Virus record (IMG/VR): IMGVR_UViG_3300023109_000014
Location: 18,462 to 82,461 of that record
Length of the DNA stretch: 64,000 bases
Direction: 5' to 3' (one strand)
Source of the DNA: a virus
Part shown: positions 18,917-52,192 of the stretch, in pieces
How the letters are laid out: every line of letters starts with the position of its first letter
Numbering within the stretch: the stretch's first letter is position 1
Notes under the pieces: generated by a model
Told to the model about the DNA's origin: nothing
Database searches by the model: none
Seen by the model: the letters and a program-made list of their open reading frames with translations, nothing else
Translations under genes and position numbers: made by a program

Positions 18917-21900
18917 ATGGCGCAAGAAAATATTAGAGTAAGAGTTAAGGCGATTGGGTTAGATCAAGACATCGCCAACCAAGCAAAAATAGGCGAAAAG
19001 AAAATAAAACCTATTAAGCTTTCTTTGAATGAAAAAGGGCTTGTGCAACCTCTCGGTAGAATTACTGGGCAAATGGGAGAATTCGAGAAATCGATGGATG
19101 CTGCGGTTGCTCGTGTATTCGCTTTTGGAGCTGCTGTTTCTGTTATAAATGGAGTATCTAGCGCATTAAAAGCTATGGCGCAATCTGCAATGGAAGTTCA
19201 AAAAGCTTTGAAGGATATCAATGTTATTATGAATATGTCAGAATCTGCTTTGCAAAATTTTGGCGGAGCTTTATTTGATGTTGCTAGAGATACTGCTTCA
19301 TCATTTGATGATATTTCTGCAGCAGCAACTGAATTTGCCAGACAAGGCTTAAGCGCTGACGAAACACTGCAGAGAATTGCTGACGCTATGACCTTAACGA
19401 GATTGTCTGGCATGGACTCTGTAGAAGCTGTAAATGCTTTAACCGCTGCAATTAATGGTTTTAATGACGCAGCAATCAATTCCTCTGATATTGTGAATAG
19501 GCTAGCTAATGTTGATGCCGCATTCGCTGTATCTTCAAAAGATTTAGCTGATGGATTGGCGCGAGCAGGGGCAACTGCCCAAGCTGCAAAAGTAGAATTT
19601 AACGAGCTGCTTGCTGCAGTTACAAGCGTTCAACAGCAAACCGCTAGAGGTGGCGCAGTGATTGGAAACTCTTTTAAAAGTATATTTACTAGGCTTCAGA
19701 GATCGAGCGTAAAAGAAGCTATGGAGGCTATAGGTGTCGCGACCCAGGATGCTTCTGGTTCATTTAGGTCTGGAATGGCAATCTTGCAAGATTATGCTAG
19801 AGGTTATGATAATTTATCTGACTCGCAAAAAGCTGCCACTGACGAATTAGTTGCTGGGGTTTTTCAGGTTAATAATTTAAAAGCTTTGATTAAAGATTTA
19901 AATAGTGAGTTTAGTATATACGATCAAGCTTTAAAAACTGCAAACAGTAGTACAAACGAAGCCACTCAAAGAAATCAAGAATTGAACAAGACTATGTCGG
20001 CTTTGATGACTCAAACTGGTCTATCTATTAAAGAGCTTGCTGCAGGCCTTGGAGAAATGACCCTTGGGCCTGGGATCGAGAAAGTTCTCGAAACAGTAAA
20101 ATCTTTATCTGACGGTTTAAATAACTTAATAGGTGAAGATACTGGCTCAAGCATAGGTAAAACTCTTTTAAAAGGCATTGGTAGTTTTATTAGTGGTCCT
20201 GGGATGGTTTTAATTGGGGGTGCGTTTATTAAATTATTTGCGTTTGTCGCACAACAAGGTTCGAGTGCACTAAAATCAATCTTTTCCATCAATAGCGAAA
20301 CTAAAAGACAAGAAGGTTTGCAGGCAGCAATTCTGCAAATATTAATGAATGAAGAAAGTATTCGACAGAAAATCCTGGGTGGCGCCGCAAGTCAAGCGGC
20401 GAAAGAGCAAACGATTTTAAGCGTTTTAAAAAAGCAAACCATGGAAAGGCAGGCGCAAGATGCGCTTTTAAAAAAAATCGCTGCGTCGTCTACATTAGCA
20501 AATGTCGCAATAAGTAATCAAGGAACCATTGTTCCGCATGGTAGGGGTTCTAGAGCTGCCGCAGGCAGAAAAGATCTTGGAATGTCTAAGGGTTATGTTC
20601 CTCCAGCCACTAAAGATTCTAAATTTATTCCATCTTTCGAGGCTGAACAAAAAGATATAGAGAGAAGGGTTGGAGGCGCAACTAAATCAGCTTCTCCAGT
20701 TTTAATAAAAGGTTTTCAAAAAACTAAAACGCAAAAACAAGATGTCGTCGCTAATACGGACGAGGTTGTTGTTGAAAATTATATGGGTTCGGGCGCTTCC
20801 GCCATTTTAAACAAAAACATGGCTCAAAGGTTTAGTTTTGATAATGGGGTAGAGAAATATTACTCTGCTGCAGAATATGGTTCAAAAAATTTCTATTCGT
20901 CTGGCTATGTTCCTAATTTCAAAGCAACAAATAAGCAGGTAATTAAATTAAATGCAGCTGGACAAGGAATTATAACTGCAGAAGCTGGAAAGTCAGAAGT
21001 TGGTAAAAATCATACAGTTACTGCTTCTTCAGTTTTTGATGGCCCAGTTCCTCCAGCATTTAAAGGTTCAAAATTTGAAGCAAGAAATTTTACAGTTGGA
21101 AGATTAGAACAATCTAAAGGAGGCTTTCATAGTATTGTAGATAAGCATATGACTACTGCATTAAGAGACGTTGCCCAAGATGTTGTTCCAGGTGGAAAGG
21201 TTAAAGGTTCTGGACCCCTGAGTGATTATTTAGATAAATCTGCAGGACCTCAATTTACTGGAAGAATTTTTGAGGCAACCTTAAATTATATTAAAAATTC
21301 AGTAGTTAAAAATGATCCTGGAACAGCTGGCTGGGATTTTCCTGGAGGACAGTTTCAAAAAAATCTAACTACTGCATTTAATCTTGATTCAAGAAAAGGA
21401 AAAAATGTCGATGCAAAAGTGTCATCCAGCAAAAAAAACATAGGAAGCGGCATTAAGAAAATTATTGACTCTAGGGGTGGTTATAAAAATTTAAAGCAGT
21501 ACAAAGATTTTGAAAAACAAAATAAAACTAAAAAAGCTTCTGCAGTTGGAAAACCAAGAGCTTCAAAAGGAATGATTCCATCAAATACCGCAAGTGTTCC
21601 GAATTTTGTATCCACTTGGGGTAAACCAGAATTGCTTAAAAAGATTAGAGAAAAGAATTTATCAAGAGCTCAAAAAGATATTAAAGGTTTTGACGGCATG
21701 AAGGCAACTAATGAATGGAGCGGTCAATTACCTATTATACAAGTCGCCGATAAAAAAACTGGAACAACAACTAGATTTACTTATGGTAAGGGAGAGTATG
21801 ATAACGAAAATAAGACTGACATTTTATATTCAGAAAGAGCTAAAGGGGTAGACGTAAACGATCCTTCTATGAAAGGTGGAGCTAATAGAAATTTTGATAA

Positions 21901-24900
21901 AATCGCAGAGTTTACAGGAAAAAGAAGTTGGAAAAATAAAGAGATTCATAGCACCTTTGACCAAATTCGAGCTTCTTCAGGCAAGACTCCTTGGGAAACC
22001 ATAATCAATTCATTCCCGCAATTAAAACAAAGAGTTAAGCCAGGAATGTCAACCTCGGGAACTTTTCAAATTGGTACTGATGAAATCGAATATAGAAATA
22101 TTAAATCTTTAAAAACTAAAGTTAATAAATGGGTTAAAGAAAATGGTATAGAGTCATTTAATAATTGGTCAGAAGCAAATTTAGGCTTTAATACAAAAAA
22201 CTCAATTTTAAGCGGAACTGCATCTGGCGAATATTTTGCTATGGATGCATATACAAAAATATTAAAAAAAGGAGACAAGCATTTTAATCGAGATGAAAAA
22301 GCTGGCTTTTATTCTCAGGGAACTGTCCCTAATTTTATTATTGATAAGAATACTGAAAGATCTATATTGCTTAAACAATGGCAGGGAAAACTTGATCAAG
22401 CCAGAACTCTCGCTAAATCAGGAAAACCCAGAGCTCAAACAGACCCTCAAATTAGCCAACTGAATGGCGAAGCAAATGGAATATGGAGCCAGATTGTTAA
22501 AATGCAATCCCCTCAAAAGCCAAAAACCAAAAACGAAAAAAGCCACTCTGAAGGTTTGATCCCTAACTTCTCTAGTTATTTAGATGCTGGCAGCAATGTT
22601 GATAAAAGTTTTGGAGGAGGGATTGTTCCTAATTTTGTCAAGGTTGGCGAAACAAATCTAGAGAGAGACCGCCTTTTAAAGCAATGGCAAGGCAAACTTG
22701 CACAAGCAAAAACCTTATCTCAATCGGGTAAACCCAGAGCTCAAATAGATCCTCAAATTAGCCAGCTTAACGCAGAGGCAAATGGGGTATGGAGCCAAAT
22801 CCAAAGTTTAAAAACTTCAAAAAAAGAAAAAACAGGAAAATTAGGAAAAGGTTCTACGCTTAGAAGATCTGAGGGTCTTGTTCCCGCTTTGGCAAAAGGT
22901 GGAATACCAAACTTTAGCGAAGATAAGATGCGTGAAGAAACGTTAAGTAGGACAATATCGAAAATGTCTGAAGGTTTAGTTCCCAACTTTGCTCTCAAAA
23001 GAAATGCTGGACTAAGAAAGTTTTACGATTTTGACGAAACTTTAGGAACGTATTCTAAAAACGTTAAATCTAAGGATTTATTTCAAGCGGAGTCAGCAGG
23101 GCTTGCGAAACCAACCCCTCTCGCAAAAGAACTTGAGGGGCAAGCCGTAACTATTTTAACCGCAAGAGCAAAGCAGTCAACTCCATTTATTGAAGAAAAA
23201 TTAAAGAAGTGGGGTATTAATCCTGAAAAGATTATGACTACTGCGGATATGTTTAATAATCTTAAAATTGCTAATGACGGGTCTGGAAAAATTATTAAGG
23301 CTCAAGGAGGAAGAATCTCTGGTTATAGAAATTTAAAACCTGCCGAGAAAAAAGCTATTCTTCTTGAAAGAATATGGAAAAAACAAGGAGGTCAATACGA
23401 TTTAATTGATGATGCGATTGAAAACATCGAAGCAATTAAAAACTTAAGGAATGAAAATATAACTGGCACTCATTATCAATTTAGTGGTCAGCATTCTGGA
23501 AGAGGTAGTGGGAATGCCGAAGGTTTAGTTCCCAACTTTGTTCAATCAGAAAATACTCAAAAAGATCTTGTCCCCAATTTTGCTGCAAAAAGCATGCCTG
23601 TTCCTGGTTATTTAGAAAAAGTTTCCAGAGAAATTCAGTCTGCAGGGGGTAGTGCTCAAATTGTTGGTGGGGCTCCTAGAGATTTTTTAATGGGAAAATT
23701 TCCTAAAGATTGGGATGTAGAGGTTTTTGGTTTAGAACAAGAAAAGTTGCAAAAAATATTGTCTCCATCTTTAACTAAAGAAGGTTTAGTTGGTAAAGAT
23801 TTTGGAGTATTCAAAGCTAAAAGTGGAGGTCAAGATTTTGAGTTCTCGATGCCAAGAAGAGAAAAGAAAGTGGGTGTTGGGCATAGAGGTTTTGAGGTTG
23901 AAGTAGATCCTAACATGGGGCGTAAAGAAGCTGCACAAAGAAGAGATTTAACAATCAATTCTATTTCTTACGACCCCCTTACAAAGAAATTTATTGACCC
24001 CTTGGGGGGGAGGAAGGATTTACAAGACGGCATCATGAAGCCTACGTCTCCCAGATTTAAAGAAGACCCTTTGAGAGTGTTAAGATCTATGCAGATGGCT
24101 GGAAGGTTTAATCTTTCTGCAGATAAAGAATTGGTCAACTATTCTCGAGAAATGACTGGACAATTTAAAGACCTTCCGAAAGAAAGAGTGAGAGAAGAAT
24201 GGATGAAATGGGCATCTAAATCTACCAATCCAGAAAAAGGTTTACAATTTTTAAAAGAGTCTGGGTGGATAAAACATTTTCCTGAAATTGATCAATTGCA
24301 GGGAGTTCCCCAGTCTCCCAAGCATCACCCTGAAGGAGATGTGTTTAATCACACAAAGCTTGTGACGAATGCAATGGCGAATAATAAAAACTGGCAAATG
24401 CTTCCAGAGAAAGAGAGGGGTAAATTAATGTTTTCTGCTTTGACTCATGATTTTGGAAAAGTTACAAATACACAAATAAGTAAAGATGGCGCTATAACTT
24501 CTTATGGGCACGAGAAAGCTGGAGTAGCACCAATGAAAAGTTTCTTGGGTAGGATTATGTCTCAAGGAGAAGCGAGTAAATTATCTAAAGACTTAACGCC
24601 TTTTGTTGAAAGACATATGTTTCACTCAAATTTTCCTCAGAATTTGACGCAGAAATCTATTAATAGGTTGACTAAGGACGTAGGGGACCTAAGCAAGTTT
24701 CAAATATTGCTTGAATCTGACATGGGTAAAAATTTATCGGATGATGTAACTGCCAGAAAATTTACTCAGGTTGACGAAAAAAATATTAATAAGATGAGTT
24801 CAATCGCAAAAGAAAGTGGAATATATAAAGAGCCGCCTAAGCCGATTGTACAAGGTAGGGATTTGATGCAAGAAAAATTAATAGAACCTGGCCCTCAAAT

Positions 24901-42900: not shown

Positions 42901-45900
42901 AAATAGGTTATCTAAGAAATTTAATATTGATGAGGGCGCTTCTCTGGGAAGTAAGGTCGCAAGATTGCAGGGTCACTTTGATCGCAATCCTGCACTCCAA
43001 TCAAAAAGTAGTTGGATGGATAGAGAAAAAGCTATTCAAATGAACGTTCTTAAGAACAGAAGACTCGCTAAACAAAAAAGAGATGGCAAGAAACTTTTAA
43101 CAGATCAAGATTTAACGGATGCAAATGGTAACTCTGTAGATAGCCTTGTCGCTCAAAGAGCAAAACGTTTAAAAGAGGGTGGAGCTAAAATGTTAGATAG
43201 TAATCTTTTTGCGTCAGATGTTGGTCGACAAAAACAATTAAAGCAAAATGTTGATGATTGGGCAAATAAAAGAGGCGATTACCACTTAGGCACAGTTGGT
43301 AATGTGAGTTATAGCCCAGAAACACTAAATTTGGAGAAAAAGATGAAGCTTTCTCAAAAACAGAAAGGTATGGTTATCGCTGATTTTGATAAAGAAAATA
43401 TTCATGGAGAAAGAAGAGAAACTGCAATCAAATTGTATGACAAAGAAATTCAAGATTACATGGTTAAATTTGAGGAAAGTAAAGCGAAAGATGTTCTTAA
43501 TTATAAATTAATTAATCCAACTGTAACGAAAAGCGCTGTAGAAGATCAGAAAAAATTCCAAGACCTCCAAAGCAAACATAGTCACTGGGATGAAGTTATA
43601 TCTAGCAACGAGTCTACAGATGATTTCGAATCTCTATATAAACAAAAACAGGAAGCTTTTCAAGATTGGGATTTGGTTCGAGGCTTACCTAATATGATGA
43701 AGCATACCGCTACCATGCAGGCTGCTGGAAGGAAGCAAGCTGGATTTTTCTTAGAGCCAGATGTAGCTGTTGGAGCAATTCCTTACAAAGAGATTAAAAG
43801 CGAAAAAGCTTCCTTAAATAAACATTTAAGTACTGCAGGGCTATCGATGGATTGGTGGCGACAAAAAGATGTTGGCTCCAGACCCGCAGAATTTAATAAA
43901 TTATTAATGCGTAACGCTAGAACTCAATCTAAACTTGTTGGAAAAGATCAAATTTCAGAAGTTGGAGGGGCTAGAATTTCTGGAAATTTAGGTCAAGGCG
44001 TTATAGATGGAGATAGGGCAAAACAAGACTTTACTAATATAGTCGATCCTGATGGAAACCTTGCTCGTTCTGGGCATGATAGGGCTAAGGGAGCCCTCAT
44101 GAAAGTAATCAAGAATGACTGGGACTTATTTGACCTCAATAAAGATGGAAAGTTAACTTCTGAAGAAATATCAATTATGGGTGGAACGTTTGATCCTACT
44201 AAGTTTACTTCTTCCGCTATTACTGGAAAGAATAATGATCCCTATAGCGAGCTGCAAAGAAATATGTTTGGCGCTAGAGCGGGCACAATTACGCCTGAAG
44301 TTTTTCAAGATTTACTTTCTTTTGATAAGGCAGTTAGCGGGGGAAATGAAGACGGCGTACTCGATCGAAATGAAATTTTTGCAAACGATCCAGAGAAGGG
44401 TAATGAAATTATACAAACTAGAGTCAAAGACTTTTTGACAAAAAAATATGTCAAGGAAGTTTCACCTTATGGAGAAACTTTAAAGCACGGGCTTGAGTCA
44501 TATTTCACTGGTTCGGACGAAGGCGGACTTTCCTCAATTAATACGTGGAAAGAATTATCTAATCTTGAGAAATCTAATTTGCCAGAAAATATTAGAGAAG
44601 AGTATTCTTCTGCCAAGACAGAAGCGGAAGCTTTGATTACTTCCGTTCCTTACCATAAAACAATTATTAATAAAGGTTCAAAATTAGAAGAAGACTCTCA
44701 ATCGAAGTTTGGGAAATTGTTTGACATGAAAGAAAGGATAAAGCTTTCTCCTTCAGAAATTGAAGCGGGTGGACAGCTAAACCTTCAGTTAAAAAGTATG
44801 AAGGGAAAAGAGGCTACTCCCGCTTACAAACAAAAGAAAGCTCAGTTTGATTCCTTAATGCAAAGAAAGCAAGATTATAAAAATATAGAAAAAGAACTTA
44901 ATTCATCTTTTACAGAAGATGGAATGATTAAGGGTCGACCATTTAGCTTGCCTCATTTTTTAACTAAAAAAGGTTTGCTTAATTCTGGAGATATTAAACA
45001 AAATCCAAACTGGGCTCCTGCTAGCATAGATGACAATTGGAAAAATTATGATGAAAAATATTTTGGAAATGTTCAGGGTGTTGCCAGACAGATAGATGCT
45101 GTGCAGGCAGCTACCGTAGATTCAAATATTGGTGTATCTGTCGGTGGTGGCGTTGCCGATGCAGAGGAAAATAAATTCTTTAATGAAACCATAAGAAAGG
45201 CGAAGGAAGAAAAAGTTACCAAAGAAAGAGAAAAGTTTCTTAAAGAAAATACCAACGAAAGAGCAAGAAAAATATTTGAACAAGAAATGATTGGAGCAGA
45301 CCCTTCTTCTAGAAACTTGTTTGATCCTTCTGCGAATATTAAGCTTCAGGCGCAAGGTTTTAGAAGTGGAGAAAAGCAGGCGCAGGAAAAGCGTGACGAA
45401 GGCTTAAAACGTATGGTTGATAATGCAAAACAAAGAAATGCGCAGCGTCAAGCTTTTACAGATGTTAGAGATCCGTTGCAGTTTATACAAAATTACAGCA
45501 GCGATTACAACGAAAGAAAAGGTCAGCTCTGGAGAAATGTTGATAGCGCAAAAGAAAACTACGAAGCAAGAACTCGTGATAACGCTCCAGTTGGAACTCG
45601 AGAGGCTGCATTTATTTCTTACCAAGAAGCTTTAAAGAAAGAGCTTGAGCATCGCAAGATAGTAGAGCCAAATTCAACATTAAGTGATGTGGTTAAGAGA
45701 AGTAATTATTCTGACATTTTAAATACAGACTGGTCTTTAGGGGGAGGATACCAACAATTCTTTGATCGTTATCACGAAGAAAAAATTATGATGAAGTCTC
45801 CAGAAGGGGTTGATGTTCCTGTTCAATCTAAAGAAGAAGCTGGTCGTCATTTGTTTAAATTGAGGCAGCAAGAAATCGTTGGGCCAATGAAGCAAAGAGG

Positions 45901-48900
45901 TTTAATGACTGAAGACGGACAGTTTGTTTCTAAGATTGGTGATCAACCCATATCTAAAGAAAAAATATACGAGTTAATTGCTGAGACTACTCCTGGAAAT
46001 AAATACGTTTATAAATCGGGCGATAAATTCTCAAGATTTCAAGAAATTTGGAGTAAGAAGTTTGGCGGCAATTTTACAAAAGGAGCTATGGGTCTTTTCG
46101 GAAACTCTTCCGCAAAGTTTACTTTAAGTAGTTCTGGATCTTTTTCCGATTTAGGGGACACTTCTTTTTCTGGAGAACAAGGGGGAGTATTTGAGGTTCA
46201 GAGAGCAAGGCAGGATGCTGCATTAGGCGCTCAGCCTCAAGCAGAGCCAGAAGTTTTAGGAAGGTATAATATTCTTGACCCAAATGAAAAGCTTATGATG
46301 TCTATACAGCAGAGCGCTAGAAATAATTTTAAAGGGGCGGAAGGCCCAACTGGTTTTAAAAGTATATACGAAGGAATGTCCTTGAGCGCTAGAGAGAGTT
46401 TTAAGAGGAAATATAAAGACCAAATCGAACAAAAGGTTCCGCCTTCTATAGTTAAACAACTTAATAATTATATTTCAAAAGTAGATAAAACTGATTTATA
46501 TGGAGTCGCTAAAGGAGATTTGGTTCCAAATTATCTCAAGAAAAAGATTGAGAATAGGTCTTCTTTAACAAGAGGAGAGAGGGATGAATTAAGAGAATAC
46601 AAAAGAAGAGAAGGCGAAGCTCAAAGAATTGTCCAAGAAAAAAGAAGGACTTCTGGAATATCTAGAGCTGCTGGTCATTTAATTGACCAACATAGTGTTG
46701 ATGAGCCTTTAGCTAGATTTATATCATCCTCTCCTGGTTATCAGTCTTTTAGGCAGTTGAGTAGTGCAGATAAATTAATTAAAGAAGTTCAAGCTGCTGA
46801 TATTTCTGTAGTGTCAAGAAAAATTGGCGGTTCAAGGATATCCTCAGAAAAAGATCGGCGCAAAAAATTAGAAAGTTTGCAAAGACAAAGAACTGCTTAT
46901 TATAATAACTTCAGGGCTAGCGTGGAAAGAGACCCTTCTTCAAGCAAGAATATCATTTTTGATTCTGTTCACCCCAGGGGATTTAGAGCCAACCCAGATA
47001 TTGCACAAATTTCAAATAATGTTATTCGTCGCCCAGTAATTTCTGAACTAAGTGACGCAGAAAAGAAAGCTGCTCTAAGATTGAATATTGACGTGGAAGA
47101 CGAGTTAATTAGAACTGACTCTAATGGTGTCCCAATGTACAAAGAGGAGAGTCGTAATGGAGTTCGTAGATTTGAAGGTACTGGGCCCTTTGATATTATT
47201 ACAAAAACAAACAAATTAGAAGGTGTTCATGAAACTTTTGATTTAGATGTTGTTCAAAAGGCTGCAGCTAATGCAGCTCGAGAGATAAGGGCAAAGAAAG
47301 ATATTCAAACAGAAAAAATTGAAAGCAATATTGAATTCGACCCAGCTTACGATACTAATAATGATGGAAAATTAACTGGAAAAGAGTTAGAAAGAAAAAG
47401 GACTATGGAGGAAATCGCAAAAAGAAACCAAGCTTCTAGTGTGAGGCCGTCTGCAAAAGGTTTTGCCCCTCCTAAAAAGTCAGCTCCTTTTCGACCCAAC
47501 CCTTCGAAACCTAAAAATTTCTCTGCAAAAGCTTCGTTACACCAAGCGTATTCAGAAATTAAGCAGTCCGTGCTCGCCAATTATAAAAAGCCTGTTACTC
47601 CAGATCAAGTTGGTATTGCTAACTTAAGGTCTGGAACAGGGAGGCACGAAAAGAGAGTTGTGAATTCTCAGGAAAAAATGTTTAATTATGGAGGTTTAGA
47701 TTTTGTTGCTCCACCTAAGAATTCAGGAGCTGCAAGAAAATATGCTTCAGATGTAGAATCTGATTTTGGAATTGATCCTTATGATAAAAATATTAAATAT
47801 GCTGCCGAAGGGTTTATTCCAGATAGAGGTCAAGTAGCCAAAGCAGAAAAAAATCCAATTCCTGGAATTAATAAATTAAACGTTAATATAGATTCTTTAT
47901 CAAAAGTTTTAAACACTAAAATGTTTCAAACAAAAGAAGTTCAAACAAATAAACATGAATCTGATTCAAGTGAATTCACGAAAGATAGTGGGTCGACCAG
48001 TTCCTTCGAGAGGAGTTCTGAAACAACAAGTATAATTAAGGGTATTTCTTCTATTGGTCCTGCAGTAGGATTAAGCGTTAGCGCTGCTTTAATCTCTGGT
48101 CTAACTAAAATGAAGGCAGACCAAAAAATTGAATCTAGGTTAAATAATAAAATAGGTTTAGCTCCAAGCGAGGATAATAATACCTCAAGGGAGGCGGTTT
48201 TTGACTTTAGTGCTGATTTTGATAAGCTCCGCGACGGTTTTAAGACACTTGATAAGGCTCCAGTTGGACGTGGAATTGAAGCTGTCGTCACTGGATTAAG
48301 CTCTCTTCTTTCACAATTTTCAGTTGATGGCGGCTCAACTCATTCTAACACTGAATCCGAAGCTATTAATGCACCTAAGGTTATACAAGATACCGTTACA
48401 TCATCCTCTGTCTCCGAGTTAATGGAGAAAGTGGCAAAACAGTTCTTAACTAAGCAGAGCGACAGGTTTAATAATAAAGAAGATAATAAACCTACTGGGG
48501 AAATTATGGACGCAACACTTAGTCCTTTAGTCGAGATCTGGAAAAAGGTTTCAACTTCAATCAAAGAGTCTATGGTTGAAAAGGAAAAAAAATCAAAGAT
48601 AGACGACGAAAGAAAATCAAAAGAAAGGGGAGATTTAAGAAAACAATCTAGCAAACTTGAATCAATGAATCAGGAAACTTCTGATTCTTCTACTGAAGAT
48701 GTTGATAGTTCCGACTCTTCTGAGATTGCTAAGGCATTTAAACCTTTTGATTCCTCTTTGCAAAAATTGATAGCTTTAACTAAGGCGTGTTGCAACGACA
48801 AGTCTTTGTTAAATTTAATTAAAGAGTCTAACACTCAGTTGGATTCAATAGAGTCTCCAGATCTAGATTCCGCCCTAAAGAAAATGATTAACTTTGAAAA

Positions 48901-50230
48901 GTCTGGTGGATCTGTCGACGAGTCTATGCCTAGTTTTACTACAGGTATAATTGAAGCATTTCGAAAAAGCGCCAAGTTACTTGTTCCAACAGGAGGGGTT
49001 AAGGCAGGTATGGAGGCAGCCAGAGCAATTGAGTTTGTTGAACCTAAAATGCCTAAAATTGATTCTGTAATAAATTCCATTGCTGGCGTGGCGACAACTT
49101 TGGGTATTCTTGATAGCTCAGAAAACAAAGAGTTGTCCGAGCAACTTTCTTCAGGTTCATCTATTGATAGTTCTCAGAATATGGTTAAGGAGAATTATAA
49201 GGAATTACAAAATACTAACCGTAGCAAAGAGACATCTGAAGCTTTAGATATTAAAAGATTTTTTGACGGAGAGGTAATGAATAAAAATGAAACTGGCGAA
49301 CCTGAACCAGCAAGAGAAGCTTTAGAGCAGCCAGAAGTAAGCTCAGAAAATGACTCTCTGATTACAGGTTTAGTTTCAGCATTAGGTGATTTTATAAATA
49401 AACTTGCAGAAGTAAGTATAGAGCCTGAAGATCCTTCTATTGTGGCCAATGTAGAGTCTGCTCCCCAAGTAGATATTAAACCCGATATAGATGTAGATAG
49501 AGAAGATTTTCAAAAAAGCACAGAAGCTGCCAGAGAAATAACTGACCAATACTCTGTCGATGGGCAAAGCAATTCCGAAAATTCTATCGACCGTCAATTA
49601 ATGGATGCTCAAACTCTGAGTTCCAATCAACCAACCATAGAAAATCCAGGACTTGTTAATAATTTATTTGATGGACAAACTCAAGAATTGCATAGTCAAT
49701 CTTCAGAGCTTAATTTAGTTGCTCAAATGCCAGAAGGAATAGAAGAATTATTAACTATTAAACCTCCTATAGAATCCCCTGATTTAAACCTGGACCCTTC
49801 TCAATTAAATCTTGCAATAGATCGACTTCAAGAAGTATTAAGAAGCGCTGGAGAAATACAAATTCTGCCTCCTGATAGCGAATCCTTGAGGCTATCCATG
49901 CCAGATAACTCAGAGGAGTTTATGACATTAAAAATGCCAACGGACCAGGAGCGCGTGATTTCTATTGATGCTACAGCTTTTAACGAAGCTATTGTCTCCC
50001 TGAATGAAGCTGTTGCAGGAGCAAGTAATATTACTCAAACTATAGAAACTAAAATAGATACTTCTGGAACAATTAATGTTAGCGCTGATTCTGCCGCACT
50101 TAATAACGCTATTAGACCTGCACTTTCTTCTTTTCAGCAAAACATTATGGATAGTACTGGATCCTTAATGAGTTCAAAGATTGCTCAAGCTATGAATACT
50201 ATTATTCAATTAATAGGAAGGTCAAGTTAA
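18917..50230 (+). CDS. Giant (10,437 aa) tape measure protein / multidomain cargo polyprotein
   Basis: One uninterrupted 31.3-kb ORF in the TMP position; TP901-family TMP core at the N-terminus; internal enzyme domains separated by VPNF motifs. Confidence 0.9.
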   Translation: MAQENIRVRVKAIGLDQDIANQAKIGEKKIKPIKLSLNEKGLVQPLGRITGQMGEFEKSMDAAVARVFAFGAAVSVINGVSSALKAMAQSAMEVQKALKDINVIMNMSESALQNFGGALFDVARDTASSFDDISAAATEFARQGLSADETLQRIADAMTLTRLSGMDSVEAVNALTAAINGFNDAAINSSDIVNRLANVDAAFAVSSKDLADGLARAGATAQAAKVEFNELLAAVTSVQQQTARGGAVIGNSFKSIFTRLQRSSVKEAMEAIGVATQDASGSFRSGMAILQDYARGYDNLSDSQKAATDELVAGVFQVNNLKALIKDLNSEFSIYDQALKTANSSTNEATQRNQELNKTMSALMTQTGLSIKELAAGLGEMTLGPGIEKVLETVKSLSDGLNNLIGEDTGSSIGKTLLKGIGSFISGPGMVLIGGAFIKLFAFVAQQGSSALKSIFSINSETKRQEGLQAAILQILMNEESIRQKILGGAASQAAKEQTILSVLKKQTMERQAQDALLKKIAASSTLANVAISNQGTIVPHGRGSRAAAGRKDLGMSKGYVPPATKDSKFIPSFEAEQKDIERRVGGATKSASPVLIKGFQKTKTQKQDVVANTDEVVVENYMGSGASAILNKNMAQRFSFDNGVEKYYSAAEYGSKNFYSSGYVPNFKATNKQVIKLNAAGQGIITAEAGKSEVGKNHTVTASSVFDGPVPPAFKGSKFEARNFTVGRLEQSKGGFHSIVDKHMTTALRDVAQDVVPGGKVKGSGPLSDYLDKSAGPQFTGRIFEATLNYIKNSVVKNDPGTAGWDFPGGQFQKNLTTAFNLDSRKGKNVDAKVSSSKKNIGSGIKKIIDSRGGYKNLKQYKDFEKQNKTKKASAVGKPRASKGMIPSNTASVPNFVSTWGKPELLKKIREKNLSRAQKDIKGFDGMKATNEWSGQLPIIQVADKKTGTTTRFTYGKGEYDNENKTDILYSERAKGVDVNDPSMKGGANRNFDKIAEFTGKRSWKNKEIHSTFDQIRASSGKTPWETIINSFPQLKQRVKPGMSTSGTFQIGTDEIEYRNIKSLKTKVNKWVKENGIESFNNWSEANLGFNTKNSILSGTASGEYFAMDAYTKILKKGDKHFNRDEKAGFYSQGTVPNFIIDKNTERSILLKQWQGKLDQARTLAKSGKPRAQTDPQISQLNGEANGIWSQIVKMQSPQKPKTKNEKSHSEGLIPNFSSYLDAGSNVDKSFGGGIVPNFVKVGETNLERDRLLKQWQGKLAQAKTLSQSGKPRAQIDPQISQLNAEANGVWSQIQSLKTSKKEKTGKLGKGSTLRRSEGLVPALAKGGIPNFSEDKMREETLSRTISKMSEGLVPNFALKRNAGLRKFYDFDETLGTYSKNVKSKDLFQAESAGLAKPTPLAKELEGQAVTILTARAKQSTPFIEEKLKKWGINPEKIMTTADMFNNLKIANDGSGKIIKAQGGRISGYRNLKPAEKKAILLERIWKKQGGQYDLIDDAIENIEAIKNLRNENITGTHYQFSGQHSGRGSGNAEGLVPNFVQSENTQKDLVPNFAAKSMPVPGYLEKVSREIQSAGGSAQIVGGAPRDFLMGKFPKDWDVEVFGLEQEKLQKILSPSLTKEGLVGKDFGVFKAKSGGQDFEFSMPRREKKVGVGHRGFEVEVDPNMGRKEAAQRRDLTINSISYDPLTKKFIDPLGGRKDLQDGIMKPTSPRFKEDPLRVLRSMQMAGRFNLSADKELVNYSREMTGQFKDLPKERVREEWMKWASKSTNPEKGLQFLKESGWIKHFPEIDQLQGVPQSPKHHPEGDVFNHTKLVTNAMANNKNWQMLPEKERGKLMFSALTHDFGKVTNTQISKDGAITSYGHEKAGVAPMKSFLGRIMSQGEASKLSKDLTPFVERHMFHSNFPQNLTQKSINRLTKDVGDLSKFQILLESDMGKNLSDDVTARKFTQVDEKNINKMSSIAKESGIYKEPPKPIVQGRDLMQEKLIEPGPQMGSVLKHLEEAQISGEFKTKKGGIEYFKNNKEDILKRINKFTPKGRMLRGRASGEVPEKINYSQGLVPNFARIPSMFNVKQTKTGKDYVMQKDLELAKTQFPDATFKQWGKNPKMHFISGHKPQNKITKDKVSFASNVDLQEFGSFAAQKGYPEVMGAIVKSTQVKQNSSGNRNYDRLTSWKNKKEEVPNQINIKDAQSLSTEDYKSFPMGKAGADLKRLYNPDSFDNVSNTIFTSSAPQKALAKSAEKFTTNKIENSEDILNFVKKSRGSESISTEQINKLYQEFAEMKGLAVMSDGHVPNFASPAFNKFIKDNIHNKNYKNISDKVTKLNLSVGNAYGVGGDIPQDVKILNRLTSQLSKVTNPLMGPTGKGSRDRVYESKEFAQKFNKTEYDKISKEITTLQKEKFQLSRPSNPDKNPDRVKKIESQILKKKEQATNTQFYKAKSEAVKKEDQGIERLFQEKFTVQKDQIVSPTGKTVSTKDLNSIEEEFNEYMFAKQQKRTNTNEELVLPNFSVTAPETVPNFVNVKAMRELAKRGATEGERAAAQNMLAKHGFKSKTITSRSWHDKIFLENYIKNNGPKSDLEMLIKKGYAEKELVSLKKQYQNDPQSVKIANHGIVPSFSKQKDRISEADYETQLYKENFKDSSQKQNVNNFSFVDDRTTSSSGSQSFAEGMVSKDVSSSSSSVDSKSFASGTVSNISSQETETLATGFIPNFGIQSDRIKEASQASQLYGQNVGYKDTQVKKLEINGKKERVVVNNKEKFYSTGSEVQKAFSLPFKPNGGMVLPPKNTKVGKERSREFSSLVNSFSSGVTPTADSSPPTLAYGAMPNFAVFRKYSPNTLRKSKIKDYSNEEFSSISRALSEFNLMSMGSRGGLMGQKLKSESRAEGLFKTKTQEQKDDFRQFFNSREFRSLTKNVQEKLKVDFPDLSRGYGYNVDPFAVRQLENVSAGTVPNYANLSLYRGQKKSTIDKPSVGKNMPSFGGAQTPRDIINIIQNFVKSHVSGPLSGRRDIGELDNVAPSGATSFSTSETVAKKFAGGGLNKPAKDNILSTQVPEKNVFNKKKILKLLNRGANPKKGQYPEVEKFKKAMASGQIQKWAEQAGGLFLNVSGRRNDKSLQKFNKTEYGRKEYDFYDRPMSSIVPESDIGWNPSGTKQISPHENEVMQIFDEGIVPNFSGAAGSAGRQKNKAYQDDPDNIIDLRPFTTFDYSLLFPQRGAGKSKDETLRGSGPYAKKYQSQFLVGWNAKGINPKIPKEADKIAKIGDAVERDVKTIVKAHSENFVRAFGEEKIRIQDSSAIDGVVQKHFNEGTLTAMAGNAFEAAANTAFSNVPVNAGGGDFDVRGPTDQLRRFFNWPSAHGSVGDFKANSQSGDIKASMADKILKELDYRGLLSGQVAKEKADFDQYDKDKAAKNKAATISRFKNVPGSNSLRGGITQKAPKGSAPSESNQQHSKIVGSSRSGQEQEDFYFSQDKNLSLGWVPNFKINQNLAGDSVPSFIDKPKEQLNNSLKVKSEKVDLQKSLKAKKGTSVDSQNELRSQNVSNASAKKFESIINNRFIDSQENKKFSSSSFADSAQSKSLQFSRSSSNLSSDFLNTRSENKVSKDASVDSQTYSQGMVSKDASVDSQTYSQGMVSKDNQVPSKSLEASKFDLTTIHRLRDKFLSREEAVQKNISPSERKLALPKGKKQEGNSELINSIYSHGKDFSADRLSNGYIPNFAINANNYSKTNDALGSAIKRENQAGIPMNKIRVGQSNRLKNEKNPGGVGVFNTIDEPRGLNQGISRSISQGINPHKHGLVSSGYVPQQTINVPNFVGRFIPKMFKGGSKGGKGVDAPIPTSGGGGGGMLGGGGGLMNTIFMGQMMFGGIEGKTGTAGGYAADATGDALQIAGITSMITDKKKWVALAATVGALNGMLDQYSKSLKMQGEQIQKNIQINGKAIESATQVVSAQTRLNSAIESGNTDNISKAIESLQKEIERFPTNGSDAIIKLRSDLVGAGGDVEIMSKALESFSQSALKVSKLGELTVKTQAVNENREGLIFGMGPSQLPEWMGGAKGDLKEEGSNEIRQIGRESVTNLALAEDQVSAFSSKISKIDFTKMSPDDIKSTIKEFSRTLDEETRVLFDQIVDNVPDDAVVDFTMGIGEQLKLRKSSIEAGKAVGKTSQALGNLKSTIVNLSTAVSRSISELNSNISKAFDIAENQLNSELSIMTGMNYISPKEANETKEQFEVTRIESEAAAGTEFEVSKFVSQLIKDTKLDDVEGKDASIFSGKLGNILSKMGERANPLQDEDPRFMANEIVSAISQMDPADRTQGEQELLDAVKQIGDKAASQITLLKQANELASRQQTMQSRMNLQNAQIDMERDGDTLSQFSWSQGLEPRTQLDKDMQTRSSMDMIGLLEPLFGPSEDLTKMKQDVGVQNAIGNVQRILLGMGIENDAGFDAGANEDISMQTMISEMQKVLAQGDLNKGQEKIVNYMVGQLKKQEAAISATPQNTEDLKRQTVQSTSDVLGVDLSEVGIDLESLDFSSLNAIADQLAEDGVEIKYLSSIEENTKVMAAKLNDAQGITKEDIISAIQNIQIKDAEKVEKRKEAVKQKEDTRSKIQDIAISGADVKVEGGADINVGGSTTINANPQSSQPPQPQFNPFVPNFAKDESSNNKQSPMRGFVKSLKRDNNTENRGFEKFDGKTFTGGKALQVANYYPGAIDSIYREVDVLENRGVQNAISKIQLTVPSTSNSTTKYQGPVVTNMMDEGSVSAQSYLNKINNVHNLKHSDSNFSIAGAVPNFASSSQSRGSVNASVRNVNAKSIANNISRINQKSDWKMARGEESAGKTYSSGAALRVANYYPETKEMLDQEISILKSRGIDSPLSQVQLTVPDENTTTFQNKNTLDPTISNRFDDGSVSISNYTKKIRNAHKVGLLTPQKPASVGEHARERAKNLVNNEQALRNQLHENILKKRKSVVLSEELKSRNESIDEPEAKKINITEKEGLKYEGGTFSAGAALRVAKYYPGATESIFREIRSLEEKGVSSPLDQVQLTIPEKGSKEFSSYNGPVVTNKIDEGGVSSKNYLNKIRSVHKVTPNEGQFASVGMPNIDAKSQYTRGAINSFSQFDYVPNFSKTEGRAKGIIRSARELSIAMEKMNELPENITPSQIAEFNQKGSAVLENINSLGNPNQQTLTKTQKALVSKMQDPEVVKTFQSIGIDNFNSDLAQFVNPDSLGEPPQPARFNPLVIQSAETGRAVESGTKVLPRDIKSGKFNVAQVMLNDENLDEFIEPSESKNIQAVVQSSQDSGQKFNENKKKLQEKRPNYASGKGTRYTDEPTAPKAGTLTTAKKEGFVGIESHGPSKALATQVRNEENALKNTTKELVKDGEGGFMRNASSWIRKKLQTIRFLDGSSNEQKQGMSIEKENAVLKQIEDDGIVRYPSDDSASPLEKSPEFKQQISEVLDNQDLSSQERGTSQIEQQTETWRKREHSLTEKIQRATKARQLKRQRSRAQELGSAERQRKTNLDAKNKRQEAKEREKRKVREIQERQIDEGLGRQKIGTNSETGKSIYHYDNPQLRELSSWDKLKHHMLKFVGLDEGSYYEEVERQNKIVRNKQMQDIATGGINTQQSKSMSTLEKLKLMSERDVLIESSEFAKETDGQKILRGTPGERRKSSLFDIQQKAGVGGKPAVINLAGDISSQTNIAGSSSKSSSLTQLSQSRAAEAQPTLMDKIRNVKKQLSEKFGKVTLSPTSSASVLQEYDILDSSGRVVAKMGSNGEVLPFEVDNSPVIYNAQGQKIGADKVIQVQEKQFALQSSPMNDGQLSTSVNQSDVLEQKALFDIGEKIKSGAPISSAETNLVQNWANKNSELVGSINADDVDNALLLENNVVDNKQIRIGRMGEELSNLTSVTNAANAEAQVESLIKDPQFVDSATRTMPGDNLHLQRVFDSIDDKNRKTKSTPIKTETALDRVKSNANINQRANALSKEMVSRDIRKNSSLELQKRLRLNKGFDTTELNTKFSNEKSRLEELLKNPSIPSDKKVGLNEDLKILTRNRNEHLNTLRPGFMERKEILINEQFKNIMRDTGLMSLTGGGADGVSSNDPVNQFMKDKLGPKVWNMDGNFVKTKQHLASAIFGEEHKFNKELTESLVDRQLRSTILNTKSETFGLSDHMRSNLIDMDKFVGMGLGDEFLNSAKKQGLHQSDIGVSKMVDFMDLMDPAGNKIDGEGKQKLKKQGIQKIFQKIQNGELFSQTAIRGRTVPIIPKDAETVLKNLSGESTSAQINAARLIENEQKISSLAAEKGSGVISQSNLKIAASELEAGDINENGIDFDKVRMSSEEISNVQSMMDSIDADPDQKTDQRVSQLSEALDPQSSNESVRSLSQLKSLELEADRAAEKAEFKKLLSLGSGATPEDVGRMSDLLQLHDQKIELGRSSNFDLEDVNQARTTIKNTAKEKVATASSTIGKELSQKSEPGQAQKRAIEELEKIDQADPVEQAEAIRSTNQEAEAKVRSASLDQGEDIVQQTVDQVEDVDETWKETKESHMSDPDRAASAGRLEELGEKYRAIIQSATDSKAWRTTRSLTKNVLGAGMGLVHLPGKAKDLTTEAYGSVKERIDAFKKAQAEKFNKRKAEQIKHPDGKSSGNFEQQEKSRVIDAKLAQLPNTKTSRGDSSLDDSLQKTKRFHIDGENMTPFEQDLHDRMTGKVRVKDSAGKTVETFYDKKIASVITNSDVGRISRVEDSITGSSYTNRGLKLRNLLPGTASRNIEGRSFIPPALQEIASLGGLDGQGSKLKLDKEGLAQRAKNIGSEIFTGKLSSPVQSLFSTKEFQTQLAETKSSGAHVAIPEEFSKTVKYGKKGEASVLDIDGAADELIKETRLIDHVGDDGKLTSFSSDEFQAFRESEFQKIEQRFAGVDNPADPVQNEQRITQINEQKEMFDNKILANNAVDESGQVVGRNTLTSEAARKRIANIQKMSVSDGMIRKQKAISDAANFGGGSARGMTVSSLINIGAIGLAQTETGMSTIDSLAGSFDFSRKDKFGVRLAGGELATSSGVSVKSQQHLLNEEKMSQLKSMAESKRDGDRAATEKYRTQGKDFLESTGLAEAGSAKPILFDTKEEAEQWSKTMTDKHGTQFAGTQNLSASKDGQKILREMGVSFSQEELIAGQSGATVVGATGGLLAESGAMALKARIGINGTRMTTGAALRIGATQAFLPGLAIEAGIATGEHFRDSHSGHLFSVAGIDVDEGEALGLAGYMAGGAVAGTFLGGPMGAVVGGLAGAGAYGARVAIGEHVNFDPDEINSGTFRMSPDELKARQQEIIELARSKSNEIRKIMDTAAMSNYTSRNKKIKSDFVSEEGFETFYERSEMQKQQRLLTEKASIIRESFLLAEKMDAKILANRELKQKGEVNDNWFAEDDPVFKQNYTADAISKILSDTTSLYDPNMFTDIKTMRKMAKEGKTQNEIHAEMQSADFKFERINPDTGQMETIMPNTEEALAQRGIKSQKYLSGLGRINDFNAKQGLMRSSTDFASASSVEEAIEIGSMSQGQFEEEKLRWNPKSEGKFAKLKDRRHKLFYSEGKKITNHDQWLEAIQRGQLDYGRINYPMEMAQVMGVPTMEGERVVKNADITSDVKNAFNYFQDKGTLYRKPIQATDRIIESMGMKSKGSDDQGESKIDEWMLGKQDDGWNVQYHPESKSVMMQHEKHGLISFPRGADPSDPRSLESLYEKYMFDITKSKYEDGIIHNNKSGYDPANTAGMSDSDPLRDINSSDQVGFSKSKFKTFEEFDKTIPEEQRVMLSAMSALFKRGEGLNDVRKNRVSTGNKVDEYAQAFEDLKNDHSMYGEFQKAITERNIGINTSKTMIGQAGFDMQKGLGNTSQLENINSELGIKDKAYNFNLGNLSEEDLQSYTSRFSGAIAKKQQDYQVVKEKVSSRQAEISLINKKINSGVNQDEKNKLITKRTKIEEALKQTKIKKGNLESFITAPEKIKQANQLKRGSQFKFQESINRLSKKFNIDEGASLGSKVARLQGHFDRNPALQSKSSWMDREKAIQMNVLKNRRLAKQKRDGKKLLTDQDLTDANGNSVDSLVAQRAKRLKEGGAKMLDSNLFASDVGRQKQLKQNVDDWANKRGDYHLGTVGNVSYSPETLNLEKKMKLSQKQKGMVIADFDKENIHGERRETAIKLYDKEIQDYMVKFEESKAKDVLNYKLINPTVTKSAVEDQKKFQDLQSKHSHWDEVISSNESTDDFESLYKQKQEAFQDWDLVRGLPNMMKHTATMQAAGRKQAGFFLEPDVAVGAIPYKEIKSEKASLNKHLSTAGLSMDWWRQKDVGSRPAEFNKLLMRNARTQSKLVGKDQISEVGGARISGNLGQGVIDGDRAKQDFTNIVDPDGNLARSGHDRAKGALMKVIKNDWDLFDLNKDGKLTSEEISIMGGTFDPTKFTSSAITGKNNDPYSELQRNMFGARAGTITPEVFQDLLSFDKAVSGGNEDGVLDRNEIFANDPEKGNEIIQTRVKDFLTKKYVKEVSPYGETLKHGLESYFTGSDEGGLSSINTWKELSNLEKSNLPENIREEYSSAKTEAEALITSVPYHKTIINKGSKLEEDSQSKFGKLFDMKERIKLSPSEIEAGGQLNLQLKSMKGKEATPAYKQKKAQFDSLMQRKQDYKNIEKELNSSFTEDGMIKGRPFSLPHFLTKKGLLNSGDIKQNPNWAPASIDDNWKNYDEKYFGNVQGVARQIDAVQAATVDSNIGVSVGGGVADAEENKFFNETIRKAKEEKVTKEREKFLKENTNERARKIFEQEMIGADPSSRNLFDPSANIKLQAQGFRSGEKQAQEKRDEGLKRMVDNAKQRNAQRQAFTDVRDPLQFIQNYSSDYNERKGQLWRNVDSAKENYEARTRDNAPVGTREAAFISYQEALKKELEHRKIVEPNSTLSDVVKRSNYSDILNTDWSLGGGYQQFFDRYHEEKIMMKSPEGVDVPVQSKEEAGRHLFKLRQQEIVGPMKQRGLMTEDGQFVSKIGDQPISKEKIYELIAETTPGNKYVYKSGDKFSRFQEIWSKKFGGNFTKGAMGLFGNSSAKFTLSSSGSFSDLGDTSFSGEQGGVFEVQRARQDAALGAQPQAEPEVLGRYNILDPNEKLMMSIQQSARNNFKGAEGPTGFKSIYEGMSLSARESFKRKYKDQIEQKVPPSIVKQLNNYISKVDKTDLYGVAKGDLVPNYLKKKIENRSSLTRGERDELREYKRREGEAQRIVQEKRRTSGISRAAGHLIDQHSVDEPLARFISSSPGYQSFRQLSSADKLIKEVQAADISVVSRKIGGSRISSEKDRRKKLESLQRQRTAYYNNFRASVERDPSSSKNIIFDSVHPRGFRANPDIAQISNNVIRRPVISELSDAEKKAALRLNIDVEDELIRTDSNGVPMYKEESRNGVRRFEGTGPFDIITKTNKLEGVHETFDLDVVQKAAANAAREIRAKKDIQTEKIESNIEFDPAYDTNNDGKLTGKELERKRTMEEIAKRNQASSVRPSAKGFAPPKKSAPFRPNPSKPKNFSAKASLHQAYSEIKQSVLANYKKPVTPDQVGIANLRSGTGRHEKRVVNSQEKMFNYGGLDFVAPPKNSGAARKYASDVESDFGIDPYDKNIKYAAEGFIPDRGQVAKAEKNPIPGINKLNVNIDSLSKVLNTKMFQTKEVQTNKHESDSSEFTKDSGSTSSFERSSETTSIIKGISSIGPAVGLSVSAALISGLTKMKADQKIESRLNNKIGLAPSEDNNTSREAVFDFSADFDKLRDGFKTLDKAPVGRGIEAVVTGLSSLLSQFSVDGGSTHSNTESEAINAPKVIQDTVTSSSVSELMEKVAKQFLTKQSDRFNNKEDNKPTGEIMDATLSPLVEIWKKVSTSIKESMVEKEKKSKIDDERKSKERGDLRKQSSKLESMNQETSDSSTEDVDSSDSSEIAKAFKPFDSSLQKLIALTKACCNDKSLLNLIKESNTQLDSIESPDLDSALKKMINFEKSGGSVDESMPSFTTGIIEAFRKSAKLLVPTGGVKAGMEAARAIEFVEPKMPKIDSVINSIAGVATTLGILDSSENKELSEQLSSGSSIDSSQNMVKENYKELQNTNRSKETSEALDIKRFFDGEVMNKNETGEPEPAREALEQPEVSSENDSLITGLVSALGDFINKLAEVSIEPEDPSIVANVESAPQVDIKPDIDVDREDFQKSTEAAREITDQYSVDGQSNSENSIDRQLMDAQTLSSNQPTIENPGLVNNLFDGQTQELHSQSSELNLVAQMPEGIEELLTIKPPIESPDLNLDPSQLNLAIDRLQEVLRSAGEIQILPPDSESLRLSMPDNSEEFMTLKMPTDQERVISIDATAFNEAIVSLNEAVAGASNITQTIETKIDTSGTINVSADSAALNNAIRPALSSFQQNIMDSTGSLMSSKIAQAMNTIIQLIGRSS
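19085..20100 (+). other. TMP core domain (TP901/PhageMin_Tail-like)
   Basis: ALKDINVIM...LFDVARDTASSFDDISAAATEFARQGL...LANVDAAFAVSSKDLADGLARAG...GAVIGNSFKSIFTRL. Confidence 0.85.
22991..23518 (+). other. HAD-superfamily phosphatase domain inside the TMP
   Basis: Motif I FYDFDETL, motif II ILTAR, Lys motif III (EKK), motif IV LIDDAIEN. Confidence 0.8.
23582..25050 (+). other. Class II CCA-adding enzyme / tRNA nucleotidyltransferase with HD domain inside the TMP
   Basis: IVGGAPRD...KDWDVEV, RRDLTINSI, FKEDPLRVLR, ERVREEW; HD domain HHPEGDVFNHT, LTHDFGK, YGHE, RHM; C-terminal PIVQGRDL...PGPQMG. Confidence 0.92.
27776..28420 (+). other. ADP-ribosyltransferase domain (R-S-E clade) inside the TMP
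   Basis: LYRG (27788), TSFSTSETVAKKFA (27980) and HENEV (28388) in the canonical order. Confidence 0.75.
29720..29823 (+). repeat. Perfect in-frame 48-bp tandem duplication (SKDASVDSQTYSQGMV x2)
   Basis: 29720-29767 is identical to 29768-29815, plus a partial third copy. Confidence 0.95.
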
Positions 50231-51905: not shown

Positions 51906-51909
51906 TATT

Positions 51910-52191: not shown

Positions 52192-52192
52192 T

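Follow-up and report, generated by a model that had tools for sequence, protein, structure and literature searches.

The stretch analysed here (hereafter the window) is the last 64 kb of the virus record IMGVR_UViG_3300023109_000014, a single contig of 82,461 bp, 38% of which is taken up by one gene. In window coordinates, used throughout together with the plus strand unless stated otherwise, this gene lies at 18917..50230; it starts with ATG and runs through 10,437 aa with zero internal stops (translation table 11). Close to its N-terminus is a TP901-type tape measure protein (TMP) core (aa 26-503, 18992..20425), where PF10145 of Pfam matches aa 122-307 with 99.6 bits against a cut-off of 33.2 (E 2.9e-28), nine TMP PHROGs match aa 26-503 with a best E of 5e-50, and a tblastn search retrieves, with 26-31% identity, the TMPs of SPbeta- and Tsamsa-type Bacillus phages. 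We identify the 10,437-aa protein as the tail tape measure protein of a long-tailed marine phage that has not been cultured. Its core is followed by a rack of about 20 modules of 14 to 837 aa (aa 571-5117, 20627..34267), delimited by 27 copies of a short peptide in its relaxed form, which we call the fence, and then by a lineage-specific C-terminal half of 5,320 aa (aa 5118-10437, 34268..50227) that is free of fences apart from two lone relaxed matches. Cysteine makes up just 2 of the 10,437 residues of the TMP, as against 111 of 9,256 (1.2%) in 22 other open reading frames (ORFs) of the phage, and the TMP family as a whole is nearly cysteine-free, which fits an extended chain passing through a narrow channel in oxidising seawater. 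The two cysteines are adjacent to each other (aa 9958-9959, window 48788-48793, in the context KACCND), and the two proteins encoded directly downstream of the TMP (window 50232-54079), neither of which matches a family, are cysteine-rich, with 19 in 557 aa and 22 in 628 aa.

The sequence-only reading of this DNA had described one giant ORF with a TMP core, and both proved to be real, given the PF10145 and PHROG matches and the collinear relatives found in independent contigs. The alternative, that an assembly chimera or a mis-joining of genes produced a giant ORF absent from any real phage, could draw on the source being a metagenomic contig that ends in a tandem repeat, on the fact that a 20-kb stretch of the gene (window 20500-40499) is spanned by no single contig in the sequencing runs searched, and on three joints that extend for just 21 letters to one side, none of them at fences, which we treated as noise. 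Against it stands a 31-kb frame that stays free of stops in DNA of 36% GC (32-40% around the ORF). In the IMG/VR contig G001 (79,989 bp), an ORF of 10,562 aa is collinear with ours and aligns with it in one piece over aa 1-9675, the likewise collinear open frame of a further contig, G003, is 8,172 aa long, and two relatives from ENA, P0001 and P0002, have 7,181 aa and 7,487 aa, respectively. Moreover, several studies contain near-identical DNA in their metagenome runs from seawater or marine samples; one DNA run from each of three studies, none of them the possible source, covers 30 of the 30 bins into which the 20-kb stretch was divided, and the read-run pieces listed differ from the TMP gene by at most one mismatch. 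Runs with a share below 0.2 (X7-X20) did not count as evidence. Considering the collinear relatives and the run coverage, we reject the chimera as hardly credible. In a seawater metatranscriptome run (X10), 21 contigs are at least 99% identical to the TMP gene and fall in 18 of the 30 bins, though carry-over of DNA is possible and we do not take them as a sign of transcription.

The fence was described beforehand as about 27 copies of (S/A)xGx[VI]PNF. That number holds for the relaxed form [VILM]P[NS][FY], with 29 matches in the TMP of which 27 fall in aa 571-5117 and the others at aa 9203 and 10004, but not for the full motif, of which there are 11; intermediate forms number 14 for G.[VI]PNF, 20 for [VI]PNF and 22 for PNF. 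One of the 27, at aa 2976, falls within a conserved module and is unlikely to be a fence. When the protein was shuffled 2,000 times, [VI]PNF appeared 0.10 times on average and at most 3 times, and PNF 0.92 times on average and at most 5 times. From 57 strict sites in four giant proteins the consensus reads h-[S/A]-x-G-[L/Y/F]-[V/I]-P-N-F-[A/V/I], and over 781 unique sites of the family it reads A/K, A/S, x, G, F/L/Y, I/V, P, N, F/Y. The conservation is one-sided: every conserved position lies N-terminal of the junction, its final position is F or Y without exception, and a small residue follows (A in 49% and S in 17% of the 781 sites). Fences often come in close pairs, 11-25 aa apart in the TMP and 7-8 aa apart in the relative P0017.

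At the sites themselves the synonymous codons vary (Pro: CCT 12, CCA 4, CCC 3, CCG 1; Asn: AAT 11, AAC 9), which implies selection on the peptide and not a DNA repeat, and we reject on this ground the possibility that the fence is a DNA repeat or a site of DNA recombination. A self-blastp of the TMP at 1e-3 found no internal repeats. That the fence is a prohead-protease site common to head proteins was rejected as well, since G.[VI]PNF occurs in no other ORF of the contig. A near-fence with S replacing G, YSSSIPNF, is present in a 118-aa ORF that heads the structural block (window 151-507), and it is the sole such near-fence in another plus-strand ORF of real length.

Comparison with the relatives shows that modules are added, dropped, replaced and reordered at fences. 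P0001 is without the regions corresponding to aa 1146-1346, 1553-2516, 2830-3160 and 3487-3708 of the TMP, the second of which comprises a CCA-adding enzyme and two other modules. Over the rack, 10 of the 14 ends of similarity to P0001 lie within 15 aa of a fence, a figure that none of 10,000 random placements equalled; for P0002, 4 of 10 ends lie at fences (p ~0.06). The CCA module itself is found in P0002 at aa 4840-5203, behind modules that precede it in the giant TMP. Identity to G001 likewise changes in steps at fences, from 93% over aa 898-1140 to 32-60% over aa 1141-1358 and back to 94% in the following module with a haloacid dehalogenase (HAD) signature, and further along from 77% in module K to 32% in module L (221 vs 324 aa) and 79% in module M. 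G003 has modules A, H, I, J1, J2, K, M, O and P, and within 5,528 aa of its ORF no HAD, CCA, F, G or L module was found at E 1e-5. Thus, the proposal that the motif marks module boundaries is borne out by the similarity ends in P0001, and a comparison of cassette content between relatives, set beforehand as a test of it, revealed content that differs and an order that is shuffled. Within the variable module L there is a perfect 48-nt tandem duplication of 2.2 copies (window 29720-29823).

The best characterized module is the class II CCA-adding enzyme (aa 1556-2064, 23582..25108), whose matches cover aa 1582-2018, between the fences at aa 1552 and aa 2061. It is matched by PF01743 with 69 bits (cut-off 23), by PF13735 with 28.6 bits (cut-off 27) and, below the cut-off of 22, by PF12627 with 19.7 bits; phrog_2244 matches at E 3.6e-67 over 378 of its 392 profile positions, and the best of the CCA and poly(A) polymerases in the PDB at E 4.9e-20. 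The catalytic motifs of CCA-adding enzymes are GG..RD, DxD, RRD and EDxxR, and in the module we see GG..RD, DxD, RRD, EDPLR and, in addition, H..HD, although the Pfam HD model is not among its matches at E 0.01. Judged by these matches and motifs, the CCA-adding enzyme is complete, and it is the sole one of the about 20 modules with a confirmed identity. The expectation that enzymes fill the segments between motifs was borne out in part: the CCA enzyme is confirmed and the HAD-like and ADP-ribosyltransferase (ART)-like modules are indeed bounded by fences, but the identities of these two are unconfirmed, the assignments being made from residue signatures only.

For the putative HAD module (aa 1359-1541, 22991..23539), the HAD superfamily is defined by four motifs in the order DxDxT, T, K and DD, and all four are invariant in an alignment of 4 sequences that reaches down to 30% identity. 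The profiles PF13419 and PF11019, searched in the contig, gave nothing, and a match of the module to GapS6a was rejected as noise (18.7 bits vs a cut-off of 90). In the ART-like module, J2 (aa 2954-3174, 27776..28438), the signature is R / S-x-x-T / E-x-E; the R-S-E class of ADP-ribosyltransferases has an Arg, an S-T-S and an E-x-E in this order. J2 occurs in 5 loci and about 13 family proteins, at differing places, and the copies listed are fenced on both sides, except one with a degenerate second fence and two fragments without the first. In alignment A8 of J2, R21 is nearly invariant and S80, S84, T87, E220 and E222 are invariant, with about 135 aa between the S and the E and only about 12 residues between ExE and the fence. 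Neither of two ART profiles, PF03496 and PF18760, had a match in the contig at E 10.

Two further modules are ancestral to the family. Module K (aa 3175-3482, 28439..29362), part of its backbone, is represented by 107 family segments, and in a sample of 91 of them G3315, F3318, D3339 and K3364 are conserved in 100%, K3379 in 97%, E3319 in 95% and D3362 in 89%; its E...D...DxK signature is reminiscent of the PD-(D/E)xK nucleases, which have E, D and (D/E)xK in this order, and makes it a candidate for such an enzyme. A 'Cytotoxic' match in module K (E 0.08) was dismissed as noise. Module M (aa 3718-3812, 30068..30352), an ancestral domain of about 76 aa that is fenced on both sides (alignment A4), is followed by a glycine-rich hydrophobic stretch (30434..30616) conserved in 17-47 family members. 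A relation between modules X and M was rejected, as hhalign aligned only the 7 fence columns at a probability of 46%. With phmmer against the PDB, the CCA enzyme was the only module found in aa 500-5200, and nothing was found in aa 5101-10100.

A search with aa 2713-3812 against 1.84 billion representatives (E 1e-3) placed the giant TMP in a large family. It matched 330 proteins, most of them through the 76-aa module M and inside proteins of 1,000-2,500 aa; some are named 'TP901 family phage tail tape measure protein' at the source, and PF10145 was precomputed on 26 of 37 matches. Our own Pfam search of 15 relatives found only PF10145 (6 of 15) and PGDYG (2 of 15). G.[VI]PNF is present at least once in 131 of 152 family proteins and at least three times in 65 of them. 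Module M is encoded in 291 IMG/VR stretches. In 80 IMG/VR loci, four fences (near aa 542, 625, 900 and 975) are the rule for a TMP of the usual 1,900-2,650 aa, and 8-13 fences are found in the expanded TMPs, which reach 3,400-5,040 aa. Across 52 ORFs, which do not count as independent data points, the number of fences correlates with length (r = 0.97). The peptide is thus no peculiarity of the giant, because ordinary family members of about 2,000 aa carry four copies; and since the copies rise in number with length, the fence is an ancestral feature of this large and uncultured TP901-type family, and the giant is the extreme of a graded series.

Splitting 226 non-redundant proteins at their fences gave 745 internal segments of at least 60 aa, which fall into 185 clusters, 116 of them singletons. 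Of 53,899 homologous segment pairs between different proteins, 88.8% cover at least 60% of both members, and the clusters occur at varying ordinal positions, J2 for example at positions 2 to 19. Among 50,697 records of cultured phages, tblastn with aa 562-1561, module M and J2 found no match beyond the core. Four contigs from metagenome-assembled genomes encode module M, two of a Flavobacteriales type, one from Neomarinimicrobiota and one from Proteobacteria, which are too few, and too uncertainly binned, to name a host.

Behind the rack, the C-terminal half is of a different character. It has no similarity at E 1e-4 to about 250 family members, is collinear with P0001, and is 39-52% identical to its counterpart in G001, where the first 4,300 aa of the TMP are mostly 80-95% and the other phage genes 44-91% identical; its length is nevertheless nearly the same, 5,320 vs 5,360 aa. 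Fast drift at conserved length is the behaviour expected of a ruler segment, and we regard the fence-free half as a candidate ruler that would set most of the tail length. Pfam finds no family in it but a weak EF-hand-like loop, DLNKDGKLTSEE, at aa 8406-8417 (window 44132-44167), which is also present in P0001 and stays below the EF-hand cut-offs.

What such a protein might do can be envisioned from what is known of TMPs. TMPs lie extended in the tail tube, set its length and are expelled to form a channel for the DNA (PMC5099701; PMC10770324). Deletions in the TMP of TP901-1 shorten the tail linearly (PMC5099701), and phage P23-45, with a TMP of 5,002 aa that includes an RNA polymerase acting at entry, has a tail of about 800 nm (PMC10770324). 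By analogy, the protein described here would be extended within the tail tube and expelled ahead of the DNA. The rack, which in the family lies between the N-terminal TMP core and the glycine-rich, putatively membrane-active region, would be stowed unfolded and add to the length of the tail, most of it set by the fence-free half, and the modules, once ejected, would reach the envelope and the cytoplasm and act before phage gene expression, where the CCA enzyme could rebuild damaged tRNA 3' ends. We consider this combination of a module rack and its delivery, leaving aside any cutting at the fences, to be probable at roughly 60%.

Several points weigh against it. Ejection, refolding, activity and cleavage are all argued from sequence and analogy, and a function is confirmed for only 1 of the about 20 modules. 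For the HAD-like module the best Pfam match is DUF2608 at E 0.11, and the PDB profile search, PHROG and NCBIfam (E 1) gave nothing relevant; J2 has no match in Pfam (E 5), PHROG, NCBIfam (E 1) or the phage database, and its 12-sequence profile found 0 PDB chains at E 10; module K has no profile match in Pfam or NCBIfam. An AlphaFold model of aa 2713-3812, made from the single sequence, had a pLDDT of 34.7 and was unusable. Folded enzymes of about 450 aa, in at least three copies, would be too big for the tail lumen unless unfolded, a requirement that is our own deduction. Where delivery is taken to include release of the modules, profile searches found no protease domain in the TMP ORF or in its conserved neighbours, cutting before or during assembly would sever the TMP core from the ruler, the close pairs of fences speak against cutting, and the enzyme of P23-45 is pictured as uncleaved and as staying fused to its TMP (PMC10770324).

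The role of the fence is where the readings diverge the most. It can be hypothesized that it is a proteolytic site, cut after the aromatic residue so that the modules are freed, and this would be consistent with a fence at every junction, as in a polyprotein, with the one-sided conservation, with the aromatic last residue and with the small residue that follows. This is the role that had been proposed from the sequence, a processing or linker signal that releases enzymes; no evidence of cutting itself was found, and we hold it at somewhat below even odds. A still more tentative form of it, to which we give slightly lower odds, has a protease not yet recognised, or the invariant Asn/Ser by self-cleavage, sever the chain behind the F/Y of each fence. 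The TMP family would then be a tail-borne injected polyprotein, stored unfolded in the tail tube and cut upon entry into at most about 20 free effectors. If that were true, the effectors would include a pair for tRNA 3'-end repair (HAD and CCA), an ART-like and a nuclease-like enzyme and a dozen unknowns, reshuffled at the fences as a plug-in kit of counter-defences, at the cost of a tail of up to about 1.5 um. The fence could also be left uncut and serve as a docking or assembly peptide, with the modules tethered in one chain of about 1.1 MDa and acting from the entry pore. The partner could then be either of two conserved proteins encoded upstream, the tube lumen, or the neighbouring TMP chains, which would thereby be kept in trimer register; the two upstream proteins are the obvious candidates for reading the fence, and their genes, unusually large and family-less, accompany the TMP in 60 of 79 loci. 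Such a role would suit a peptide that is hydrophobic and aromatic, like a linear motif that binds a groove, and close pairs, which suit avidity better than cutting; the missing protease and the fused P23-45 enzyme point the same way. A spacing of 80-800 aa is too sparse for holding modules unfolded, though, and the one-sided conservation and the small next residue look more like a protease site. We lean towards a processing site, with docking as a possible but less favoured explanation. That the fence is a mere linker or joint seems unlikely to us, and a small remainder of the odds falls to other roles.

A last possibility is that the protein is essentially a ruler, giving a tail of about 1.5 um, with the modules as passengers or spacers that have no role in the host and the fence as an inherited linker or joint. 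The TP901-1 deletions, the P23-45 tail, to whose length the enzyme-bearing TMP as a whole corresponds, and the length that the C-terminal 5,320 aa keep at about 42% identity would all be in line with it. Against it, the CCA and HAD modules are 94% identical to those of G001 vs 40-52% for the C-terminal half, so that the enzyme modules are the best conserved; the catalytic motifs of the CCA enzyme are intact; copies of J2 in different TMPs match with E 1e-68 to 1e-124; and the fence is conserved as a peptide while its codons vary, as would not be the case for a DNA recombination site. We consider a pure ruler improbable, and the delivery of a module rack remains our preferred interpretation. 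Taking 0.15 nm per residue, 10,437 residues amount to 1.57 um, which agrees with the earlier estimate of a pure-ruler tail near 1.5 um, but setting that figure against cargo was not warranted, as the ruler and cargo roles are compatible and not alternatives. The predicted tail would be about 1.5 um if the whole protein contributes, or about 0.8 um if only the fence-free half does. The longer of these would, to our knowledge, be the longest phage tail known, and the giant TMP puts the ruler rule to the test at its extreme.

Each feature of this arrangement has a partial precedent. The TMPs of SPbeta-type phages, such as YomI of SPbeta, annotated as a transglycosylase and TMP, share the TP901-type core and an enzyme embedded in the ruler with a role at entry, and mycobacteriophage TM4 has a TMP with an embedded wall-hydrolase domain; these TMPs have one or two envelope-directed domains and, unlike the protein described here, no fence and no exchangeable rack of cytoplasm-directed enzymes. 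The internal proteins of T4 are ready-made and delivered with the genome, each cargo with a short targeting peptide and a protease site, though there each cargo has its own gene, is packaged in the head, and owes its cleavage to the prohead protease. The delivery of ready-made enzymes with the genome, as proposed here, resembles that of the T4 internal proteins and of Alt, an injected head protein of T4 (PMC9503650). Another precedent is gp96 of P23-45, which is likewise a giant TMP of a long-tailed phage with an enzyme proposed to act at entry, before phage expression; it has one N-terminal virion RNA polymerase, and the available sections report no fence, module exchange or TP901-type core (PMC10770324), whereas the present TMP has about 20 fenced modules after its core. 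Polyvalent proteins of phages and conjugative elements (Iyer et al. 2017, PMC5512222) are similar in being very large, with many unrelated conflict-type domains in mosaic combinations. They are virion-borne and frequently include ARTs and nucleic-acid enzymes, and embedded peptidases have been proposed to mediate release; they are tied to head packaging (MuF, portal) and often contain a zincin-like peptidase (PMC5512222). In our case the carrier is a TMP, the fence is uniform, and searches of the ORF turned up no profile match to a peptidase or to MuF. The papers on polyvalent proteins that were searched make no mention of a tape measure, and 'tape' occurs 0 times in PMC5512222. Finally, the Sle1-type effectors of actinobacterial contractile injection systems combine a carrier derived from a TMP with an exchangeable functional module, and are loaded in a tail-like tube and ejected (PMC13277306), but these systems are cellular and not phages, and their effectors have a single C-terminal module and, in the sections available, no fence.

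Hence TMP-borne enzymes, giant multi-domain injected proteins and TMP-derived carriers with a swappable module were already known. What appears to be new here is a TMP with a long series of exchangeable modules that share one marker peptide, a CCA-adding enzyme as candidate cargo, and a fence-free half of conserved length; the papers searched describe, in their main texts, neither the fence peptide nor a TMP with many modules. Should the modules indeed be delivered, the tail tube would be a second cargo hold of phages besides the head, and its content could be read from the sequence by means of the fence. The 185 clusters of fenced segments, nearly all without a known function, would then be candidates for early anti-defence or host-takeover proteins, and the CCA enzyme would suggest that in some hosts the attack on tRNA 3' ends comes early enough to force the phage to carry in a ready-made repair enzyme. 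Tail-like delivery particles could also be designed on this principle, with a uniform fence and exchangeable modules for loading proteins.

The two upstream genes mentioned above encode proteins of 289 aa (16922..17791, two places upstream of the TMP gene) and 358 aa (17805..18881, adjoining it), and both are candidate tail assembly chaperones. Their homologues in the 60 loci comprise 53 distinct ORFs each, and those of the 289-aa gene lie upstream of the TMP gene in all 30 listed of the 53. Profile searches with the two proteins gave no family match and the PDB no meaningful match, and a frameshift link between the two genes was looked for and not found. Further upstream is a gene for a tail-tube-like protein (15219..16070), matched by PF18906 with 24.2 bits, below the cut-off of 27, and by phrog_290, a minor tail protein family, at E 6e-6; its product may be a distal tail protein instead of the major tube protein. 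In the three loci L049, L050 and L072, a homologue of this gene is found directly downstream of the TMP. The large subunit of the terminase is encoded at 3167..5086 (phrog_2, E 7.9e-21), just behind a gene for an ERCC4-type nuclease-like protein (window 2259-3224; phrog_3490, E 5e-9). Many further genes upstream of the TMP have no family match, and no family annotation was found for the five genes downstream of it. The contig is open-ended, without a terminal repeat, and CheckV puts its completeness at an estimated 60% or so. At its end, an 18-nt tandem array of about 44 copies with a 9-nt sub-period (window 63213-64000) reaches the last position, which is probably why the assembly ends there. 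A minus-strand ORF at 62696-64000, open at the contig end, would read the array as Gly-X-Y-like triplets, and this suggests a collagen-like fibre gene.

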